NCBI GenBank assembly: GCA_002420105.1
Contig: DIHJ01000038.1
Coordinates: forward strand, 76,504-140,503
Source of the DNA: Nitrospira sp. UBA5699
GTDB lineage: Bacteria > Nitrospirota > Nitrospiria > Nitrospirales > Nitrospiraceae
Length of the DNA: 64,000 bases
Reading direction: 5' to 3'
In this document: piece by piece, positions 3,138 to 12,207 of the stretch
Layout of the letters: each line of letters begins with the position of its first letter
Numbering within the stretch: the first letter of the stretch is position 1
Notes under the pieces: generated by a model
Database searches by the model: none
What the model was told of the DNA's origin: nothing
What the model saw: the letters and a program-made list of their open reading frames with translations, nothing else
Made by a program: the position numbers and the translations under genes

Positions 3138-3275
3138 TCCGGCCGTGCAATTCTCCGGATTCCTCTCCGGATTCGCTTCTCCAACTCGTTGATTAAAGGC
3201 CTGAAAAGATGAAAATGCTATGCTTTTCCATGGCTCAGCCGGAGTGCGAACGATCAGGGCTGAAGGGAGGTTCCT

Positions 3276-3737
3276 ATGAAGGCGCGTCAATGGATGATGC
3301 AATACGGAGTGGCCGTGATCCTGGCTGCGTGCTTTGCCGCGGCGTTGGGACACCTGCCGCTGTTCCGCGGCACGACCGTCGGCAAGCTGCACGCGTCCGA
3401 TCTGGTTCAATTTCTCGGATACGGCGGCGCCATGGTCGTCGCCTGGTTCGGCGCCCGCGAGTTGGCGGCCGAACCGCCGGAAGACTGGAAGTGGTTGATG
3501 CCCTACCGGGCGCTGGTGCTTCCGGTCGTGACGCTGCTGATGACGGCTCTGGCCTATGGCGTGCTGCTCTACGTCTGCGAACCGTTCCTCGGCAAGGCGG
3601 GGAAGGGGGTGTACAACTGGATCTTCGTCATCGGCATCGTGAGCGCCAGCGTGTGGCTCATCCTCACCTGGGTGCAGAAATGCGCGCCTCACGCCGCGGT
3701 TGCGGGTTCGCGCCGAGTGAAAAAGCAAGCGGCCTAG
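3276..3737 (+). CDS. Hypothetical integral membrane protein (about 4 TM helices)
   Basis: A GGGAGG RBS lies 6 nt upstream of the ATG, and the protein has four hydrophobic stretches. No recognisable family. Confidence 0.5.
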   Translation: MKARQWMMQYGVAVILAACFAAALGHLPLFRGTTVGKLHASDLVQFLGYGGAMVVAWFGARELAAEPPEDWKWLMPYRALVLPVVTLLMTALAYGVLLYVCEPFLGKAGKGVYNWIFVIGIVSASVWLILTWVQKCAPHAAVAGSRRVKKQAA

Positions 3738-3753
3738 ACCGGTTCTGCCCGCC

Positions 3754-3787
3754 GGCTGCCTCGCGCTGCGGGGCAGCCCCCTTTTCC
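3754..3787. terminator. GC hairpin between convergent genes (candidate intrinsic terminator)
   Basis: GGCTGCC (3754-3760) pairs with GGCAGCC (3772-3778) and is followed by CCCTTTTCC. Confidence 0.35.
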
Positions 3788-3789
3788 CG

Positions 3790-4794
3790 TCACCGCCGAT
3801 TACTCACGATCTCAACGATGCGGTTCTCCGCCCAATAACGGTCTTCGTTCGCCCGCCGCCGCTGAAAAAATCCGCAATGACCTCCCTGCGGGGGCGCGAT
3901 CAGCCTGATGCGGGAATTCCGCCTGATGGCGGGATGAGAGAAGATCGGGAACGGGATGAACGGATCGTCCTGGGCGGTAATGATGGTTGTCGGCACGGTG
4001 ATCGCGTCGAGGACATGCCGCGACCCCGCACGGTCATAGTAGTCGGCGGCGTTCTTATAGCCGCCGTCCGGTGCGGTATAGCGGTCGTCGAATTCGCTGA
4101 TCCGTACGATGCCGTCGAGACCGGCGAGATCCCATCTGCCGGGAGAGAGCGCCGCCTTGCGACGCAGGCGCGCCTTGAGGCTGGTGAGGAAGTGCCGGTG
4201 ATAGAGCCAGTTGCGGGGTGCTTCCAGCGCGGTGACGCACGGCGTCGGATCGATATTCGGACAGACGGCGACGGCTCCGGCCAGGGCTGACTCCGTCCGG
4301 CCCAATTCGCCCGCCGCCTTGAGTATGAGATTGCCTCCCATCGAATAGCCGACCAGCCAGATCCGCTCCGCCCGATCGACGCGCGTCAGTTCCTGAACGA
4401 CCACCCGATAATCCTCGCTGAGCCCGCTGTTGTAGAGCGTCGGCGTGAGGTGTTCCGTCCCGCCGCAGGTCCGCTGGTTCATGCGAACGACGTTCAGGCC
4501 CGCGCGGTAGGCTTTCGACGCGATTCCGAGCATGTAATGCGATTCGCTGCATCCTTCGAGCCCGTGCACCAGCACCAAAGTCTGGGCCGATCGACGGTCC
4601 GGCTGCCAGTGGCAATAGCCGAGGAGCTGTGTATCCGGTGCCGTGGCGAAAAGACGGGGTTCGACCGGTACGCCGGTCAAGAGGTTCACCCGGAACCAGT
4701 AACCGGGGATGACCGTCATGAGATGAGAATTGCGAAGGAAGCGTGCCGGCTCGAAGTGTGCTCGTGCAGACGTCATGGCGCTCATCATAACCAA
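3790..4794 (-). CDS. Alpha/beta-fold hydrolase (YheT/ABHD-like)
   Basis: The protein has the GYSMGGN nucleophile elbow (GxSxG), an HGLEG block and a C-terminal GGHCGF His region. Confidence 0.75.
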   Translation of the reverse strand: MVMMSAMTSARAHFEPARFLRNSHLMTVIPGYWFRVNLLTGVPVEPRLFATAPDTQLLGYCHWQPDRRSAQTLVLVHGLEGCSESHYMLGIASKAYRAGLNVVRMNQRTCGGTEHLTPTLYNSGLSEDYRVVVQELTRVDRAERIWLVGYSMGGNLILKAAGELGRTESALAGAVAVCPNIDPTPCVTALEAPRNWLYHRHFLTSLKARLRRKAALSPGRWDLAGLDGIVRISEFDDRYTAPDGGYKNAADYYDRAGSRHVLDAITVPTTIITAQDDPFIPFPIFSHPAIRRNSRIRLIAPPQGGHCGFFQRRRANEDRYWAENRIVEIVSNRR

Positions 4795-4987
4795 AAGTCC
4801 CCGTTCTCCCTACCGACAAATGCGTCGCAACCAGTCCGCCACAGGCTGAGGCAGGTTGGATGGATTCCCCGACGATTTTCAAGAACAGTGGGAAATCGCC
4901 GGCTGTAAATTCAATGACTTAGGATGCATCTCCTCTGTGAGCAATGGCACTGGGATTGCACTCTGCGCCATACCCTTTCTTAAGACT

Positions 4988-7900
4988 ATGACACCATCAC
5001 TTCTCAGACGCGAAAAGTTCGTCACCAGACTGTCGCTCGCCGTGACCGGCGCCGCGGCGCTCCTGTTGGCCTGGTCCGTCGGGACCGTGGCCGGCACTGC
5101 GGCCGATGAAGGGCGATCGCTCGCGGTGGCAGAGGCCATCCTGTTCGGCCTGTTGGCGGGGTTCCTCGTGTACGGGAACGCCTGCTACCAGGTGGCCAGG
5201 CTGGGATATCTGTCTCGTCTCGGCCGGCATCAAGCGCGCTGCGAGAACGACGACGCGCCCGAGAGGGAAGGCCCGGCTCCCGGCCTTACCCTGTTGGTCC
5301 CCTCGTACAAAGAAGAAATCGACGTGATCCGGCAGACGCTCTGGTCTGCGGCGCTGCAAACCTATCCGAACAAGCGACTGGTTCTGCTCCTCGACGATCC
5401 TCCCCAGCCGAAAACTCCGGAAGACCGTGAAGCGCTTCTTGCCGCCAGGGCGCTGCCTGCGACCATGCAGGCGGCGCTGGACGCACCGCGACGAGTGCTG
5501 GCCGAGGCCCGCGCGGAATTCGACGGGCGTCGCAGCGGCGGCTCCGTGAATCTTTTCAGAGAATGCGCCGAATTGGCCGACTGCTATCGGCGGGTGGCCG
5601 ACTGGTTTTCGTTCCAGGCGAAACACTCTTCTACGGGAACCCATACCGACGTCTGGTTCGCCGAGCACATCTTCGGCCGGCCGGCCGAGGCTTATCTGGA
5701 ACAGGCCGCGCAATGGGCTCAGAGGAGAAAGCGTATCGCCGACTTCCACGCCGATGCGCTCGCGGCCGAAATCGAACGGGCGTATGCCGCGCTGGCCGGT
5801 CGTTTTCAGGTGGAGATCGAAGTGTTTGAGCGGAAGCGGTACCGGAATCTTTCCCATGAGCCGAACAAGGCGATGAACCTGAACAGCTATCTGGGGCTCA
5901 TGGGGAGGCGGGTGCGCGTCGTCGAAGAAAGCGGTCACCTCACCCTTTCGGAGACGGCGGAGGTCGAGCAGAGCCGGGTGATCCCGGAGAGCCCCTACGT
6001 GATCACGCTCGATGCGGACAGCCTGCTGCTGCCCGATTACGCCGAACGTCTGATCCGGATCATGGAACGGCCGGGGAACGAACGGATGGCGGTCGCGCAG
6101 ACCCCCTACAGCGCCTTCCCCAATGCGCCGGGCCCGCTGGAACGAACGGCCGGCGCGACGACGGATATTCAGTATCTGGTTCATCAGGGCTTTACCGAGT
6201 ACGGTGCCACGTTCTGGGTGGGCGCGAACGCGCTGCTCCGGAAAACGGCGCTGGACGAGATCTGTGTCGAAGAACCGGCCGGCGGCGGAATCATTCGCCG
6301 GTACATCCAGGACCGGACCGTGATCGAGGATACCGAATCGACCGTGGACCTCGTCGCCAAGGGCTGGACTCTGTTCAACCACCCCGAGCGGTTGGCCTAC
6401 AGCGCCACGCCCCCCGATTTCGGATCCTTGATCATTCAACGCGCGCGCTGGGCCAACGGCGGCCTGATCATTTTCCCCAAGCTGCTGTCCTTCCTGCGCC
6501 GGGCGCCGAAGACCGCGGCGACGGCGGTGCAGGGCTTGTTGCAGACCCATTACCTGACGTCGCTCGCGATGGCTCCGCTCAGCGTGCTGCTGCTCCTGGT
6601 CATTCCCTTTTCGTCGGAATTGATGACGGTCTGGATGCCGTTGGCCGCGCTGCCGTATTTTGCCCTCTACGCGCGCGATCTCTCATTGAACCGGTACCGG
6701 CCGGGGCGGGATCTCCTGCGCGTGTACGCGCTGAATTTGTTGCTCATCCCGATTCACCTCGGCGGAGCGTTGAAGTCGCTTCAGCAGGCGGTCACGGGCG
6801 GCAAGATTCCGTTCAAGCGCACGCCCAAGGTCGCCGGCCGGACCGGTACGCCGGCGCTGTACCTGCTTCTGGAGTACGGACTGATGCTGGGCAGCCTCGC
6901 CCTTGCCGCGGGGTACGGCGCGAGCGGCCGTTGGATCTCCGCGACGTTTGCCTTGCTCAACGCCGCGCTCATGCTGTACGGTATCCGTCAGTTTGTCGGG
7001 TTTGCCGAAAGCGCGGAGGACATCCGCGCAAGCTGGTTGCTGAGGTGGAGAGGCATGCAGGAGAGCCTGTCTTCCCTTGCGGTGACACGGTCGGTCAACC
7101 GGCTGCTCGCGGACTCGATCCAATCCCTCCAACGGCTGCTTCCCCGCACATCCCCTTCGCGGTTTTTTTCGATTCCGCTTGTCTGGTGGTGCGTGGCGCT
7201 GGTCGAAGTGCTGGCGCCGGCGGGGGTACTGGGCGGGGATGGCGCGTCGCCCAATCCGATTGTGCTCGAAAACCGGAAGAGCGGAACGACGTCGTGGATC
7301 ATTTCGACACCGGCCCGACGTCACGAAATCGAAGGGTATGCGTCGGCCACGAGCGTCAACCGGGGAGACTCGATCAAACTGTTCGTGCACACGGAGGCGC
7401 CGGCCTATGTGGCGACAATTTACCGCATGGGCTGGTACGGAGGCGCCGGAGCCCGGGAAGTCGTCGCCCCGTTGAGACTGGAGGGGCGTCGCCAGCCGCC
7501 GCCCGTCGTCGATGCGACGACAGGGCTGGTGGAATGCCGATGGGAAAACCCGATCGTCCTGCACATTCCCGCTCAGGGACCCGATGCCGCCGACTGGTTG
7601 TCGGGCGTCTATCTGACCAAACTGACGGCCGAGCCGACGGGAGAGAGCAGCTACATCCTGTTCGTCGTCCGTGACGACGCGCGGCCTTCCGACTTCCTGT
7701 ATCAGTCGAGCGTCACGACGTTTCAGGCCTACAACAACTGGGGCGGCAAGTCGCTCTATGACTACAACAGCGAGCAGGGCGGGGCCGTCATGGTGTCCTT
7801 CGACCGCCCGTACGCCATCGGGCGGGAGCCCGTGGACGCGCTATCCGTCGGTGCGGGCGCGTTCCTCCAGGGGTGGGAATACAACATGGTGCGGTGGCTG

Positions 7901-8689
7901 GAGCGGGAGGGTTACGACGTCACCTATGCGACCAATCTCGACGTCCATCGCGACCCCGCGCTGCTGTCGTCCCATCGGGCGTTTCTCTCTGTGGGACACG
8001 ATGAGTACTGGACCGGCCGGATGCGCCGTCATGTCGAGCAGGCGCGCGATCGGGGAGTCCATCTGGCGTTCTTCTCCGCCAACACCTGCTATTGGCAGAT
8101 CCGCCTGATGCCGAGCCGGCTGACCGGCGTGCCGGACCGGATCATCGTGGCGTACAAGGGCAAGGCTCCCTGGCAGGATCCCGTACTGTTCGACGGAGAT
8201 CCGGCCAACGACCGCCTCGCGACGACGAGATGGCGCTCGGCTCCGGTCAATCAACCGGAAGCCGCTCTTCTCGGCGGGATGTATCTGGAGGGCGAAGAGG
8301 CTGTGGACGGCAATCTGGTCGTGGTCAACTCATCCCATTGGATGATGAACGGGACCGGGCTCAAGCAGGGAGACGTCCTGCCCGGTTTGCTGGGGTACGA
8401 AGTGGACGGCGAGGATAGCACCTCTCCGCCGAACCGGGTCGTGCTGACCCGCTCGCCCGTCGGATCCCGCATGGCGACCTCGACGCTGTACGAGGCAGCC
8501 AGCGGCGCGCTCGTATTCAACTCCGGATCGATGCAGTGGATCTGGGGGCTCGACGATTTCCACGTGGACGGGCGGGGCGAGCCCCGGACGCATCCGGGGC
8601 TGCAGCAGATGACGCGGAACCTTCTCAGCCGGCTGGGGCAGCCGGTTTCATCGGTCCTGGCACAGGGGCGATCCGGCGATGGCAGATAG
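4988..8689 (+). CDS. Membrane glycosyltransferase family 2 (cellulose-synthase-like) fused to a C-terminal N,N-dimethylformamidase-large-subunit-like domain
   Basis: Two N-terminal TM helices are followed by a GT2 core with DAD (6011-6019), IEDTES (ED at 6326-6331) and QRARW (6437-6451). About 6 TM segments follow, then a roughly 480-aa soluble domain from about 7250 with FQAYNNWGG and GHDEYW (7994-8011). The ORF opens at 4856, but the ATG at 4988 directly precedes the first TM. Confidence 0.8.
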   Translation: MTPSLLRREKFVTRLSLAVTGAAALLLAWSVGTVAGTAADEGRSLAVAEAILFGLLAGFLVYGNACYQVARLGYLSRLGRHQARCENDDAPEREGPAPGLTLLVPSYKEEIDVIRQTLWSAALQTYPNKRLVLLLDDPPQPKTPEDREALLAARALPATMQAALDAPRRVLAEARAEFDGRRSGGSVNLFRECAELADCYRRVADWFSFQAKHSSTGTHTDVWFAEHIFGRPAEAYLEQAAQWAQRRKRIADFHADALAAEIERAYAALAGRFQVEIEVFERKRYRNLSHEPNKAMNLNSYLGLMGRRVRVVEESGHLTLSETAEVEQSRVIPESPYVITLDADSLLLPDYAERLIRIMERPGNERMAVAQTPYSAFPNAPGPLERTAGATTDIQYLVHQGFTEYGATFWVGANALLRKTALDEICVEEPAGGGIIRRYIQDRTVIEDTESTVDLVAKGWTLFNHPERLAYSATPPDFGSLIIQRARWANGGLIIFPKLLSFLRRAPKTAATAVQGLLQTHYLTSLAMAPLSVLLLLVIPFSSELMTVWMPLAALPYFALYARDLSLNRYRPGRDLLRVYALNLLLIPIHLGGALKSLQQAVTGGKIPFKRTPKVAGRTGTPALYLLLEYGLMLGSLALAAGYGASGRWISATFALLNAALMLYGIRQFVGFAESAEDIRASWLLRWRGMQESLSSLAVTRSVNRLLADSIQSLQRLLPRTSPSRFFSIPLVWWCVALVEVLAPAGVLGGDGASPNPIVLENRKSGTTSWIISTPARRHEIEGYASATSVNRGDSIKLFVHTEAPAYVATIYRMGWYGGAGAREVVAPLRLEGRRQPPPVVDATTGLVECRWENPIVLHIPAQGPDAADWLSGVYLTKLTAEPTGESSYILFVVRDDARPSDFLYQSSVTTFQAYNNWGGKSLYDYNSEQGGAVMVSFDRPYAIGREPVDALSVGAGAFLQGWEYNMVRWLEREGYDVTYATNLDVHRDPALLSSHRAFLSVGHDEYWTGRMRRHVEQARDRGVHLAFFSANTCYWQIRLMPSRLTGVPDRIIVAYKGKAPWQDPVLFDGDPANDRLATTRWRSAPVNQPEAALLGGMYLEGEEAVDGNLVVVNSSHWMMNGTGLKQGDVLPGLLGYEVDGEDSTSPPNRVVLTRSPVGSRMATSTLYEAASGALVFNSGSMQWIWGLDDFHVDGRGEPRTHPGLQQMTRNLLSRLGQPVSSVLAQGRSGDGR

Positions 8690-9971
8690 ATCTGGCCGGG
8701 AACCGGACGATTCCGGGCTTCCGGCGTCGAATGATGACGGCTGGCTCATTGCGTGGGGACTCGTCTGTTTGATGGGGCTCATCGTGATGGCGGCGGTCAT
8801 TGCGACGGCCCACTCGGCGGTGCCCTATCTCTGGCTCGCCGTCGCCGCCGGAACCATGTTCATCCTGGCAGCCTGTCTCAGTCCCGGTGCGGTGGGAAAA
8901 GCGCTCTGGATCAATCTGGCCGTCATCGCCCTGACCCTCGGGATTCTGGAGGGATTCTACTGGCTCAAGGAACCGCCGGACCGCCAGATGGAGTACAGCG
9001 AAGGGTTCTTCGTCCTCGACGATCTTCTCGGATACGGGCCGGCGCGCGGCCGATCGGTCTCGCACGTGGCGAAAGTCCTGGACCGCCTCCTCTATCGCGT
9101 CACCTATACGATCGACGATCACGGATTGCGGGTTGCCGGGCCGCCGGACGCGTCGTCTGCACAGACCGATGCCTGTCTGGTGTTTTTCGGCGATTCGTTC
9201 ACCTTCGGCGAAGGCGTGCCGGACGAAGCCACGATGCCCTATCGGGTCGGGCGAAAGCTGCGGGACAGTTTCCGAACGGTCAATTTCGGATTTCTCGGAT
9301 ACGGACCGCATCAGATGCTGGCCATCCTGGAGGAGGATCGCGTCGACGCGATAGAATCCTGCCGTCCGCGCCTCATCGTGTACCAGGCGATTCCGGCTCA
9401 CGTGTCCCGTGTGGCCGGATTGGAGCCCTGGGACCAGCATGGACCGAGGTACGTGCCGACCGGGGACGGTCGCGTGAGGCGGGCGGGACATTTCGACGAC
9501 ACCCCTCCGGAAACCCTCCTGGATGCGTTCCGCCGGTTCCACCACGGCCTGACGATCACCTGGCAACGGCGATTGGAGCAGAGCGCATTGTATCGCATGC
9601 TCCTCCGCTCCCATCGGCCGGTGACCGAGCGGGATATCGAGTTGTTCGCCGGCGTGATCGGCACAGCCGGGCAGACCGTGCGTGAGCGGTACCCGGACGC
9701 CGCCTTTCACGTGCTCCTGTGGGATTTTGAGAAGGACCGGGCCCTGCTCCCCGCGATCGAACGGGGGCTCAAGAAACAGGGCCTGCCGGTTCATTCGATG
9801 TCCGCCATTCTTCCCGGCTTTCGCACCCAGGAAGCCGAGTATGAGATCAGCCCCTACGATCAACATCCCAACGAGCGGGCTCACGAACTCATCGCCGAGT
9901 ACGTGGTCAATTCCATCGCCACCCCCGTATCCCGCATGACGGTGGCGGCCCTTCCCCGGCTCTCCCAATAG
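8679..9971 (+). CDS. Membrane-anchored SGNH/GDSL-family hydrolase or acyltransferase
   Basis: Three N-terminal TM helices are followed by the block I motif FFGDSFTFGEG (GDS at 9189-9197). The start overlaps the GT2 fusion stop by 11 nt. Confidence 0.65.
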   Translation: MADRSGREPDDSGLPASNDDGWLIAWGLVCLMGLIVMAAVIATAHSAVPYLWLAVAAGTMFILAACLSPGAVGKALWINLAVIALTLGILEGFYWLKEPPDRQMEYSEGFFVLDDLLGYGPARGRSVSHVAKVLDRLLYRVTYTIDDHGLRVAGPPDASSAQTDACLVFFGDSFTFGEGVPDEATMPYRVGRKLRDSFRTVNFGFLGYGPHQMLAILEEDRVDAIESCRPRLIVYQAIPAHVSRVAGLEPWDQHGPRYVPTGDGRVRRAGHFDDTPPETLLDAFRRFHHGLTITWQRRLEQSALYRMLLRSHRPVTERDIELFAGVIGTAGQTVRERYPDAAFHVLLWDFEKDRALLPAIERGLKKQGLPVHSMSAILPGFRTQEAEYEISPYDQHPNERAHELIAEYVVNSIATPVSRMTVAALPRLSQ

Positions 9972-10072
9972 CGCGGAGAGATCGAGTCATCCCCGAGTCG
10001 AAGCACCGGCTCCGCAGGAACCGGAACGGTCAAAACGACGAATTTCTGGCAGGTTGTTGGCGGAATTATTAG

Positions 10073-10105
10073 GGGGAAGGTCGCCTTCTACGGGCGACTT
10101 TCCCC
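10073..10105 (-). terminator. Strong hairpin 18 nt downstream of the tRNA-Asn 3' end
   Basis: GGGGAAGGTCGCC (10073-10085) pairs with GGCGACTTTCCCC (10093-10105), 13 bp with one G-U pair. The flanking T tract is only weak. Confidence 0.35.
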
Positions 10106-10164
10106 TTATGCTGTGGCTATGATTGGCTCCCCGGGCAGGACTCGAACCTGCGACCAGCCGGTTA

Positions 10165-10719
10165 CAAGTGCCCCAGTCTTTCGACCGGGCTTGGACTATC
10201 TCTTCACCCGCCTGAATTTCAGGAGAGGGTGTCGGGCGCTGGTGAGGCGTTATCGGATTGGCTCCTCAGCCTCTAGTCTCTGCACGTTCCTGCCTACACC
10301 ATCTCTCGATGGGCCGTTCGGCAGGCTTCGCTCAGGATTACCGTTCCGCATATGCGGAGACGGCTTCCCTGAATTCACCCGATGTTTCAACCACAGTTTC
10401 CTGTGGAAGCTGCAGATGGGAGTGAACCTCTCGGTGACAGTTCGCGCACAAGAGCATACATTTGTCTAGTTCTTCGCGGATCTTCGACCAGCTTCGCGTG
10501 TAGCCTTTGCTGGATATCCCAAAGTCCTTGCGAGAAGAAGTCAGATGATGAAACTCCAGTGCTTCCATACAGCGGTCATAGCCGCATCTTTCACAACGCG
10601 CGCCCTTGTAAGCCAACGCCTTTTGTCTGATGACTTTTCGGCGTTTGCGGACGGCCTCGATCAGATAGCTGCGACGATCCGCGTATGAACGTCGCTCTGC
10701 CACCGGTTCCCTCACTCCT
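10165..10719 (-). mobile_element. Group I intron (555 nt) in the tRNA-Asn anticodon loop, between nt 35 and 36
   Basis: The 5' exon ends in U and the intron ends in G (10165). The IGS CCGGTGGCAG (10706-10697) can pair with 5' exon CUGU (P1, with a G-U pair) and 3' exon ACCGG (P10). The R box is GTGCAGAGACTAGAGGC (10285-10269) and the S box is AAGAGATAGTCC (10204-10193), with GACTA/TAGTC forming P7. P4 is CCTGCC/GGCAGG, P5 is CCATC-GAGA-GATGG (10312-10299) and P9 is CCCGGTC-GAAA-GACTGGG (10189-10172). Confidence 0.75.
10338..10715 (-). CDS. Intron-encoded HNH endonuclease (candidate homing endonuclease)
   Basis: CERCGY...EFHHL (HH codons at 10550-10545)...LLCANCHREVH forms an HNH/zinc-finger motif. 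The track ORF (10338-10790) runs into exon 1. The in-frame GTG starts inside the intron are at 10715 and 10703. Confidence 0.7.
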   Translation of the reverse strand: MREPVAERRSYADRRSYLIEAVRKRRKVIRQKALAYKGARCERCGYDRCMEALEFHHLTSSRKDFGISSKGYTRSWSKIREELDKCMLLCANCHREVHSHLQLPQETVVETSGEFREAVSAYAER

Positions 10720-10778
10720 ACAGCCGGCTGCTCTACCAACTGAGCTACCGGGGAACGGTATTCAGCGAAAGCTGCTGC

Positions 10779-10787
10779 ATTGTAGCA
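10779..10787 (-). promoter_or_regulatory. Candidate extended -10 promoter for tRNA-Asn
   Basis: The minus strand reads TGCTACAAT (TGn plus TACAAT) about 25 nt upstream of tRNA position 1. There is no good -35. Confidence 0.3.
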
Positions 10788-10856
10788 CAATTGATGTGGA
10801 TCAAGGCGAGCGTTTTTTAACGAGCGAAGAGGAAATCAGGTGAATTATTTCCCCAT

Positions 10857-11126
10857 TTAGACGTCGAAATCTTCGGTCTCGTCCTCGTCGGATGAGGCGT
10901 CGGAGTTGCCTTCCGCCAGGGCCGCGTAGTGCTTGGCCCAGGTCAGATACAGGTTGCCGCTGTCCCGCATGGTGTCGGCGGCCTTCACGAGCTTTTCGAC
11001 GAGCTCGGGGTCTTTGCCCGCGGCCTGGATGACGGCGGCCCGGCGCTCGATCGCTTTCGGGTACTCGTTGATCAGGCCGGCGATTTCGCCGAGCAGTTCG
11101 TTGAGGATGTTGTCTTCGTTTTCCAT
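10857..11126 (-). CDS. Small hypothetical protein with an acidic C-terminal tail, last gene of the OFOR cluster
   Basis: The ATG at 11126 is preceded by an AGGAGC RBS. The 89-aa product ends in SDASSDEDETEDFDV. It is co-oriented with, and lies downstream of, the ferredoxin-like subunit gene. The track ORF start at 11171 is less likely. Confidence 0.5.
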   Translation of the reverse strand: MENEDNILNELLGEIAGLINEYPKAIERRAAVIQAAGKDPELVEKLVKAADTMRDSGNLYLTWAKHYAALAEGNSDASSDEDETEDFDV

Positions 11127-11199
11127 CGCGCTCCTGTGCCCCAACAAAAAACCCCATAGCGCGGACGCCATGGGGTTCTTGACGGTGAACCCGCTCGGT

Positions 11200-11478
11200 T
11201 TAGCCCTGATAGGCTTGGCCGAGGGCTGCGGATTCGCCTTTTTTCGACATGAGCTGTCCGGTCGCGCTGACGGCCTGCATGACGATCGCCTCGTGCTTGG
11301 CGGCGTTGCAGACTACGACGCAGAGTTCGCAACCCTTGCAGCGGTCGATGTTGACTTCCGCCACCATCTTGGCCGAATTCAGGTCGAGGCAGTTGGCCTC
11401 CGGGCAATACATGATGCAGAGCCGGCAGCCCTTCTTGGCGGTGCACTTCTCGTCGATGACTTGCGCTACGTTATACAT
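11200..11478 (-). CDS. 2-oxoacid:ferredoxin oxidoreductase, 2x[4Fe-4S] ferredoxin-like subunit
   Basis: Two Cys clusters are present: CTAKKGCRLCIMYCP and CKGCELCVVVC. Confidence 0.8.
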   Translation of the reverse strand: MYNVAQVIDEKCTAKKGCRLCIMYCPEANCLDLNSAKMVAEVNIDRCKGCELCVVVCNAAKHEAIVMQAVSATGQLMSKKGESAALGQAYQG

Positions 11479-11499
11479 GCGACGTGGTTCCTTCTCTCG

Positions 11500-12207
11500 T
11501 TACGCAGCCACGGCCGGATTGCCGACTCGCAACTCAACGTGGTTCTTCTCGGCCCATTCGCTGGCGATCTCATAGGCCCGCTTGACGGTCGCCAGGTTTT
11601 TCTGGAGCAGCATTTCCTTCTTGGCGAACTTCTTCTTGATGGCTTCGTCCAGCGAGGCCGTGCCGCCCGATGCGACGAACTTCTTGCCGAACCGTTCCTG
11701 CAGCGCGCCGTCGAGGGCTTCCATCGACACGCACTTGGTGATGCCCGCCACCGATCCGATCATCGTCATGTTGGTGGACAACTCGGTGCCGGCGATCTCG
11801 ATCGCGAGCTCGGTCCCGGCAATGTAGAATGTGGCGACATTCAGATCCTTGAGGCGTTGAATGTCTTCTTCCGACAGCAGCGGCTGCGCGGAGTTGATGA
11901 TGACCACGCCGCCTTCCTTAATGCCGGAATAGAACGGCATCGTATAGCTCTTCCCCATCGTGATGACCTGAGGATGGAAGACCTCGATCACATCCGGGAA
12001 GACCAGTTCGCCGCGGTCATAGATCCGCTCGATGCCGATCCGGCAGTAGCTCTCGGCCGGCGCCATGCGCTTTTCCGCGCCGAAGAACGGATTGGAAATG
12101 GAAAATTTGCCGTCCCGGTTGGCGGCCATGGCCATGACGTGGGCGGCCGTGACGGCGCCCTGTCCGCCCAAGCCCGACATCCGGATATTCAGTCTTTTCT
12201 TGATCAT
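11500..12207 (-). CDS. 2-oxoacid:ferredoxin oxidoreductase, gamma subunit
   Basis: MSGLGGQGAVTAAHVMA is typical of OFOR gamma domains. The gene overlaps the beta subunit gene by 4 nt. Confidence 0.85.
   Translation of the reverse strand: MIKKRLNIRMSGLGGQGAVTAAHVMAMAANRDGKFSISNPFFGAEKRMAPAESYCRIGIERIYDRGELVFPDVIEVFHPQVITMGKSYTMPFYSGIKEGGVVIINSAQPLLSEEDIQRLKDLNVATFYIAGTELAIEIAGTELSTNMTMIGSVAGITKCVSMEALDGALQERFGKKFVASGGTASLDEAIKKKFAKKEMLLQKNLATVKRAYEIASEWAEKNHVELRVGNPAVAA

Follow-up and report, generated by a model that had tools for sequence, protein, structure and literature searches.

The gene at positions 4988 to 8689 (+) of a 64,000-nucleotide stretch of Nitrospira sp. UBA5699 (contig DIHJ01000038.1, positions 76,504 to 140,503; the whole stretch is hereafter called the window) encodes a 1233-aa membrane protein in which a processive family 2 glycosyltransferase (GT2) synthase is joined, through a linker and a transmembrane (TM) anchor, to a DMFA2_C domain related to the large subunit of N,N-dimethylformamidase (DMFase). 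The assignment of the gene as a whole was based on its open frame, Pfam, homologues, an AlphaFold2 (AF2) model and Foldseek. We consider it somewhat probable that the gene belongs to a sigma-54-driven two-gene operon for an exopolysaccharide of the N-acetylglucosamine (GlcNAc) type, and that the fused domain de-N-acetylates the emerging chain. This reading is preferred because the protein would follow the same logic as the Streptomyces protein MatB, with a non-homologous modifier.

In the proposed mechanism, the operon would make a synthase-dependent exopolysaccharide, most likely an N-acetylhexosamine polymer resembling poly-GlcNAc. The first 670 residues, a BcsA-type processive GT2, would polymerise UDP-sugar in the cytoplasm and thread the chain through their own membrane channel, with control exerted transcriptionally via sigma-54 and no PilZ domain being present. 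The linker and the extra TM helix would place the C-terminal ~480 residues on the periplasmic side, beside the channel exit. There the C-terminal domain, a putative mononuclear-iron (2-Tyr-1-carboxylate) amidohydrolase of the DMFase/N-acetyl-beta-Phe-acylase family, would partially de-N-acetylate (or otherwise de-N-acylate) the nascent chain, a role like that of the CE4 enzymes (IcaB, PgaB and the C-terminal domain of MatB) in poly-N-acetylglucosamine (PNAG) systems. A translationally coupled membrane protein with an SGNH fold would add or remove O-acyl groups, together with an adjacent AT3 protein in most relatives.

The translation of 4988-8689 (+) was stop-free in a single frame of 1233 codons, and the ATG at 4988 coincided with the start of the closest homologues, which are likewise 1233 aa long. 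A longer reading from a TTG at 4856 is unlikely, because the ATG at 4988 is the one used by the closest homologues and lies 28 nt 3' of a perfect sigma-54 promoter. The homologue search, which covered 5.8 billion proteins, detected at least 65 protein clusters with the GT2 plus DMFA2_C architecture (56-83% identity, 1211-1285 aa). They were derived from NCBI, ENA, JGI and Logan assemblies, and all those with a named source were labelled Nitrospira; the fusion was also present in eight Nitrospira genomes of the species-genome collection. The junction, consisting of the linker and the TM helix, was alignable across all the fusion homologues. The recurrence of the same continuous open reading frame (ORF) in the clusters of independent assemblies and in the eight species genomes thus excludes that separate genes were joined here by misassembly or a frameshift, and the probability of such an artefact can be regarded as negligible. 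Public annotations named the homologues either DMFase beta-subunit family protein or cellulose-synthase-like protein. The claim of an earlier note, made from the DNA letters, that a single membrane fusion protein of 1233 aa is encoded here was therefore borne out by the open frame, the Pfam matches and the homologues of the same architecture, and the fusion survived the check for a split by frameshift.

The synthase half begins with a TM hairpin (residues 13-66; 5024..5185, +), defined by hydropathy peaks and with charges fitting an N-in orientation. The cytoplasmic GT-A catalytic domain (5270..6502, +) was delimited by alignment to BcsA (4hg6/5ej1) and carries D136/D137, K294AxN297, D342xD344 and E447-D448, with Q484RARW488 sitting on the interface helix. 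It is followed by the channel region (6515..6997, +), in which the AF2 secondary structure comprised four TM helices, the interface helix IF3 and a gating loop FKRTPK (6812-6829). Pfam assigned Glyco_trans_2_3 (PF13632) to residues 337-560 (E 9e-31). The signature motifs of processive GT2 enzymes listed in the earlier note were all present: LLLDDPP at residues 133-139, LDADS at 341-345, IEDTES at 446-451 and QRARW at 484-488. NKAMNLN was located at 293-299 and FKRTPK at 609-614. D136, KAxNxN, DxD, ED, QRARW and the FKRTPK loop, including F609, T612 and K614, were kept in all 38 of the GT2-containing rows of the alignment, and position 137 varied between D (30 rows), N (8) and E (1). The synthase half matched BcsA with E 1e-10 by sequence, and Foldseek of the whole model likewise retrieved BcsA (4p00/4hg6) at E 1e-10, followed by plant CesA and by hyaluronan and chitin synthases. 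By its motifs and by its modelled channel and fold, the N-terminal part is a processive membrane GT2 synthase of the BcsA, hyaluronan synthase and chitin synthase type. It appears to be a competent one, because the gating loop and every motif of processive GT2 enzymes are kept and Foldseek matches BcsA, CesA and hyaluronan synthase.

Assignment to a named synthase could not be upheld. The protein is not a BcsA cellulose synthase, as no PilZ domain and no nearby BcsB-like gene were found and TIGR03030 scored 73.9 bits where the cut-off is 699.1; nor is it a PgaC/IcaA PNAG synthase, as the score for TIGR03937 was 28.7 bits and its cut-off is 422.3. The absence of a PilZ domain stated in the earlier note was reproduced by Pfam, which gave no PilZ match in the fusion protein. 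The same note had pointed to an unusually long helical insertion, and the AF2 model agreed with it: the GT domain is interrupted at residues ~144-272 (5417..5803, +) by four long helices, all with a predicted local distance difference test score (pLDDT) above 90, at model positions 111-150, 156-180, 186-215 and 222-239 (add 33 for residue numbers). The insertion lies between DDPP and NKAMNLN and is ~110-140 aa longer than that of BcsA. Near-invariant residues within it include R181, E192, W206, H219, D221, W223, W243 and R246. A regulatory function, a role in dimerisation or the binding of a partner can be envisaged for it.

The C-terminal module (residues 756-1233; 7253..8686, +) was resolved, from PF20254 and a profile alignment, into a beta-sandwich and an alpha/beta/alpha domain, together forming a putative periplasmic DMFase-like amidohydrolase. 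The Pfam family DMFA2_C (PF20254) matched residues 810-1189 over 367 of the 374 profile positions, with E 3e-115 and a score of 385.9 bits where the cut-off is 27, and the motifs FQAYNNW and GHDEYW, also named in the earlier note, occupy residues 912-918 and 1003-1008. The top Foldseek matches of the whole model were N-acetyl-(R)-beta-phenylalanine acylase (8huy/8i5a) and DMFase (6lvb), with E about 1e-11. The likeness to the DMFase large subunit noticed earlier was thereby confirmed, and in place of a carbohydrate-binding or Bcs-type domain, the alternative considered for this region, a PF20254 module with a full catalytic set was found. Detection by sequence depended on the query: a search of PDB sequences with the full-length protein missed the DMFase structures and one with the C-terminal domain reached only the acylase, and a family profile was needed for DMFase. 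The profile built from 52 relatives matched DMFase 6lvb (E 1e-17) and the acylase 8huy (E 2e-17) and provided a residue-level alignment.

In DMFase, the Fe3+ ligands are Y399, Y440 and E521, and H519, N547 and E657 are essential (PMC7686228). Our counting reproduced this published numbering, and Y399, Y440, E521, H519, N547 and E657 aligned with Y915, Y924, E1006, H1004, N1032 and E1138, respectively, of the window protein. Y915, Y924, H1004 and E1006 were found in 26/26 rows containing DMFA2_C and N1032 and E1138 in 25/26, and the six residues were invariant or near-invariant across the wider subfamily. Both solved relatives, DMFase and the acylase, cleave small N-formyl or N-acetyl amides. 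By alignment, the domain is thus a member of PF20254 with the complete 2-Tyr-1-carboxylate/His/Asn/Glu set. It would hold the full catalytic apparatus of an amide-hydrolysing family, because all six catalytic residues of DMFase align and are kept, and it probably binds iron. It is not a bona fide N,N-dimethylformamidase, as no small-subunit gene is adjacent, only the C-terminal module of ~480 aa is present, identity is ~17% and the domain is predicted to be extracytoplasmic.

Hydropathy and the AF2 model agreed on two N-terminal TM helices, four TM helices with an interface helix after the GT domain, and a further TM helix at residues 728-748. By correspondence to BcsA, the segments would run in the order TM1-2, cytoplasmic GT domain, QRARW interface helix, two TM helices, IF3, cytoplasmic gating loop and two more TM helices. 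From knowledge of the BcsA structure and from Foldseek, this helix order would correspond to TM5-TM8/IF3 of BcsA and FKRTPK to its FxVTxK gating loop. An Arg-rich linker (residues 671-727; 6998..7168, +), predicted to be cytoplasmic, occupies the position of PilZ in BcsA; it contains 8 K+R against 5 D+E and low-confidence helices, and no PilZ. The extra TM helix (728-748; 7169..7231, +; hydropathy 1.92) is proposed to be a signal anchor and is kept in variants that are truncated or fused to CE4. The DMFA2 module then starts at residue 756 with NPIVLEN. The loop charges obeyed the positive-inside rule throughout. We infer from this topology that the C-terminal domain is periplasmic, because a BcsA-like helix order is followed by one extra TM helix and the loop charges are positive inside. 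Among the relatives of the module, 92 of 132 carried it directly after a signal-like hydrophobic segment, some of which were of the twin-arginine (Tat) type. Tat signals were seen on some free-standing DMFA2_C relatives (L060, 9640-11622; P0131) and fit, as far as sequence goes, the export of a folded, metal-loaded enzyme.

The DMFA2_C domain has been exchanged in place during the evolution of these synthases. Sister Nitrospira synthases, whose GT2 parts are 55-64% identical to that of the window, bear a CE4 polysaccharide deacetylase instead of DMFA2_C. Both the anchor helix and ~25 residues from the start of the DMFA2 module persisted in these CE4-fused variants. In one of them (L003), the CE4-fused gene is followed by a 125-aa ORF corresponding to the last ~105 residues of DMFA2_C, 63% identical to the window protein, with the gene for the SGNH partner next to it. 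CE4 has thus replaced DMFA2_C within the same slot, because the anchor and the start of the module are kept and the end survives as a stub in L003. The CE4 domains kept T[VI]DD (SVDD in P0079), HTFSH and RYPY and look intact at the level of their motifs. The window protein itself, lacking CE4, is not a MatB-type synthase-deacetylase, an architecture found in the sister variants P0074, P0079 and P0090. In the tree of GT2 cores, the DMFA2_C forms constituted the backbone of the Nitrospira clade, with CE4-fused and truncated forms nested repeatedly inside it; the well-supported branches forced at least nine changes, and one DMFA2_C form was sister to a CE4 form with branch lengths below 0.1.

Truncated variants without the C-terminal domain occurred in several Nitrospira lineages. 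Their existence, from which the domain would be dispensable for synthesis, agrees with the possibility that it is inert, a periplasmic scaffold or carbohydrate-binding platform guiding the chain as BcsB does; BcsA indeed needs periplasmic BcsB with its carbohydrate-binding domains, and no BcsB is found here. The whole catalytic set is, however, strictly kept across the Nitrospira fusions, as would not be expected of a purely structural module, and we regard an inert domain as very unlikely.

The nature of the polymer was approached through the wider family of the synthase. A pattern scan detected at least 582 loci encoding GT2 proteins with the four-helix insertion, including those of Proteobacteria, Chlorobiota, Planctomycetota and Actinomycetota. 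The relatives from other phyla were 43-55% identical over residues 1-646 and retained the insertion, which by these alignments is a hallmark of the wider GT2 family. A CE4 gene, separate or fused, stood beside a GT2 of this family in ~10 loci of several phyla. A PgaB-like protein with CE4 and GHL13/GHL10 was encoded in 6/6 Chlorobiota loci (L041, L042, L046, L047, L049 and L061), and a GH18-like protein together with a chitin-binding CBM5/12 in ~10 Actinomycetota loci; the Proteobacteria loci contained PMT_2 or TPR/beta-barrel (outer-membrane barrel) proteins. CE4 partners were also noted in Rokubacteria, Binatota and Acidobacteria (among loci L005-L084), and cultured hosts of the family include Arthrobacter sp. 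MYb23, Demequina spp., Halomonas aquatica and Haloactinopolyspora alba. Judged from the genes, the partners differ from phylum to phylum and all indicate a polymer of the GlcNAc type.

These neighbours bear on the alternative that the polymer is not an aminosugar but, for example, a beta-glucan, with the C-terminal domain acting on peptidoglycan, on an N-acyl substituent or on a small periplasmic amide. Cellulose synthase models gave the highest scores for the GT2 part (CelA, E 7e-21; BcsA, E 1e-10), CE4 also covers peptidoglycan deacetylases and acetyl-xylan esterases, and the SGNH partner resembles CE2 acetyl-xylan esterases, all of which would suit such a polymer. The family-wide neighbours (PgaB-like proteins, GH18 with CBM5/12, and CE4) instead point to GlcNAc polymers, and the covalent tether at the exit of the synthase favours the nascent chain as the target, as in MatB. 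We therefore consider a polymer other than an aminosugar rather unlikely.

DMFA2_C was also found in association with polysaccharide genes outside the Nitrospira fusions. A metagenome-assembled genome of Burkholderiaceae contained the operon HlyD-MacB-OEP-GT2-MBOAT-x-DMFA2_C, in which DMFA2_C is a separate gene with a Tat signal and all the catalytic residues kept; this is an independent association of the same GT2 family with DMFA2_C. Both of the secreted DMFA2_C relatives that were examined lay in polysaccharide clusters, one with GT4s, a WecA-like protein and MBOAT, and the other with GT4 and CE4. Locus L085 encodes a 1367-aa secreted protein (8001-12104) that contains Ig-like domains and DMFA2_C in duplicate. 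Its gene is the last of a cluster, all on one strand, that further codes for three GT4s, a hexapeptide transferase, a WecA-like glycosyltransferase, an MBOAT protein and a methyltransferase. The subfamily of PF20254 is large, with 8,982 clusters at 50% identity for E<1e-3 and 2,594 for E<1e-30. The closest relatives of the C-terminal domain (~50% identical) were secreted multi-domain proteins with PKD, LamG, BACON, F5/8-type-C, malectin and Ig modules. No fusion to another GT2 was detected among the 52 relatives scanned, nor among the 8 with a C-terminal module.

A further alternative is that the C-terminal domain is a periplasmic polymer hydrolase cleaving a non-amide bond, either glycosidic, as in the trimming by BcsZ, PgaB-GH153 and PelA, or an O-ester. 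Every well-studied synthase-dependent system has a glycosidase or lyase and none was seen in this operon; the presence of both DMFA2_C and CE4 in the L086 cluster suggests non-redundant roles for the two; and the fold belongs to a ThuA/GATase-like group of diverse functions (PMC7686228). On the other hand, the amide-hydrolysing metal site retains each of its six residues, both characterised relatives are amidases, and the domain that replaces DMFA2_C in situ is a deacetylase and not a glycosidase. Cleavage of a non-amide bond accordingly seems unlikely.

Several observations weigh against de-N-acetylation of a GlcNAc-type chain at the synthase exit, the reading that we prefer. Identity of the domain to DMFase and the acylase is only ~14-17%, and its conserved metal site could serve other hydrolytic chemistry. 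The small subunit that DMFase needs is not encoded by any gene adjacent to the fusion. The best NCBIfam similarity of the synthase is to CelA, ahead of PgaC; both matches are partial and far below threshold. The replacement by CE4 could alter the polymer instead of preserving it, and the two proteins of the L086 cluster need not be equivalent. Neither an outer-membrane exporter nor an AT3 gene was found within the 64-kb window. The AF2 model, spanning residues 34-1233, was only of moderate quality (mean pLDDT 76.5; predicted template modelling score 0.56), and the placement of the active site near the channel exit is putative. Finally, the functions proposed for the secreted DMFA2_C subfamily and for this GT2 family are computational predictions.

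The expression of the synthase is presumably driven by a sigma-54 (-24/-12) promoter, TGGCAC-N5-TTGCA (4945..4960, +), identified by its consensus match 28 nt upstream of the start codon. It was the only perfect sigma-54 consensus in the window, in which 0.05 would be expected by chance, and GG-N10-GC was conserved in the upstream regions of the L001, L003 and L004 orthologues. In most Nitrospira relatives, a TPR gene and a CHASE2/sigma-54 activator gene lie directly upstream (6996-9614 in L001); by tblastn, CHASE2/sigma-54 activator, TPR and AT3 genes were absent from the window. The upstream neighbour here is a divergent gene for an alpha/beta hydrolase (3790-4794, -), and two upstream ORFs, 3209-3838 (+; 209 aa) and 4450-4908 (+; 152 aa), had no Pfam match.

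The second gene of the operon (8679..9971, +), whose start overlaps the stop of the synthase gene by 11 nt, encodes a protein of 430 aa that, according to AF2 (mean pLDDT 89) and Foldseek, has three TM helices and combines a beta-sandwich with the fold of SGNH hydrolases. The earlier note had reported no classical partner genes nearby. This held for BcsB and PilZ, as neither BcsB nor any other classical Bcs partner was found among the neighbourhood genes, but it overlooked this conserved overlapping gene. Its product showed SGNH elements, S173 in FFGDSFTFGEG and D394-x-x-H397 in YDQHPN; in the alignment, S173 was invariant and D394 and H396 (alignment numbering) were near-invariant. Foldseek retrieved SGNH esterases with E 1e-5 to 1e-3, including CE2 acetyl-xylan esterases, TesA and the SGNH domain of OafA, and Pfam gave only GDSL matches below threshold (17.6 against a cut-off of 32.9). 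On the model and the motifs, the partner is thus an SGNH-fold protein with the GDS of block I and the DxxH of block V.

In L001 and L003 the synthase gene is followed by an orthologue of the partner (49% identity), and tblastn placed the partner downstream of the synthase also in L005, L008 and L038. The family yielded 293 matches, and all those with a named source were hypothetical proteins of Nitrospira or Nitrospiraceae; by sequence it looks largely confined to Nitrospira-type genomes. Weaker relatives adjoined GT2 genes in other phyla. In most Nitrospira relatives, an AT3 acyltransferase gene is located between the synthase and the partner, and the AT3 and SGNH proteins resemble, by analogy, a split O-acylation pair of the OatA/OafA type.

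Among known systems, the closest precedent by analogy is Streptomyces MatB and not cellulose synthase. MatB, which makes PNAG, joins an intracellular GT2 through a TM helix to an extracellular CE4; the accompanying genes are matA and, downstream, the icaC-like AT3 gene SCO2961 (PMC5972031). The two proteins share the combination of an intracellular GT2, a TM segment and an extracellular polymer-modifying hydrolase in one polypeptide, and a downstream AT3 (IcaC-like) gene is likewise found in most Nitrospira relatives. In MatB, however, the modifier is a CE4 and the GT2 is PgaC-like, whereas the window protein has a DMFase-like putative iron amidohydrolase and a GT2 of the insertion-bearing family, with the SGNH partner and sigma-54 control besides. 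In its modifier domain the architecture is analogous and not homologous to that of MatB. The proposed operon also resembles the IcaADBC and PgaABCD systems, in which a synthase is accompanied by a partial de-N-acetylase outside the cytoplasm and by a protein for O-acyl modification (IcaC, of the AT3 family), and Chlorobiota members of the GT2 family adjoin genes for PgaB-like CE4+GHL13 proteins, but no CE4, IcaD/PgaD or PgaA is encoded within the window.

With BcsA (4hg6, 4p00) the synthase shares the GT-A core, the D/DxD/TED/QxxRW motifs, the FxVTxK-type loop, the TM channel and the fold. It differs in having neither PilZ nor BcsB and in the added helical insertion, extra TM helix and predicted periplasmic enzyme domain. 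DMFase of Paracoccus (6lvb; PMC7686228) and the Burkholderia acylase (8huy) share with the C-terminal module PF20254, the alpha/beta/alpha domain and the complete iron site with His/Asn/Glu. Those enzymes are soluble proteins of ~770 aa acting on small xenobiotic or amino-acid amides, and DMFase needs its small subunit, whereas the module described here would be an extracytoplasmic domain of ~480 aa, 14-17% identical and tethered to a polysaccharide synthase. What is new is the modifier domain, placed in a synthase-modifier fusion of a known kind. Literature searches on DUF6605, PF20254, DMFA2 and Nitrospira synthases found neither a prior description of the pairing of a synthase with PF20254 nor a carbohydrate role for PF20254. 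The proposal of an uncharacterised synthase-plus-modifier architecture was supported in this respect, as well as by the full catalytic set and the conserved fusion.

Among the flanking genes are those for proteasome subunits, for a Pup ligase and for an oxoacid:ferredoxin oxidoreductase of five subunits. In the gap 3' of the operon, a small ORF (10338-10790, -) was assigned to an HNH endonuclease (Pfam HNH, E 3.6e-4).

To our knowledge, the only role ascribed to DMFase has been the breakdown of a man-made solvent. The fusion ties the DMFase fold physically to a polysaccharide synthase, and its repeated swapping with CE4 suggests a natural function, open to test, for the thousands of secreted proteins that are still uncharacterised. 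We propose tentatively, and with some doubt, that the secreted DMFA2_C subfamily (about 9,000 clusters), whose members are frequently linked to carbohydrate-binding modules and located in polysaccharide loci, may represent unrecognised iron-dependent polysaccharide de-N-acylases interchangeable with CE4 in synthase-dependent systems for exopolysaccharides, and that the xenobiotic DMFase may be a recent offshoot of them. If this is true, they would in effect form a new carbohydrate-esterase-like family. The evolutionary context of the fold has been called unclear in the description of DMFase (PMC7686228). For the organism itself, the operon may serve to produce the matrix of Nitrospira under sigma-54 control. 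Nitrospira are key nitrite oxidisers, which grow in wastewater treatment and in soils in the form of dense aggregates.

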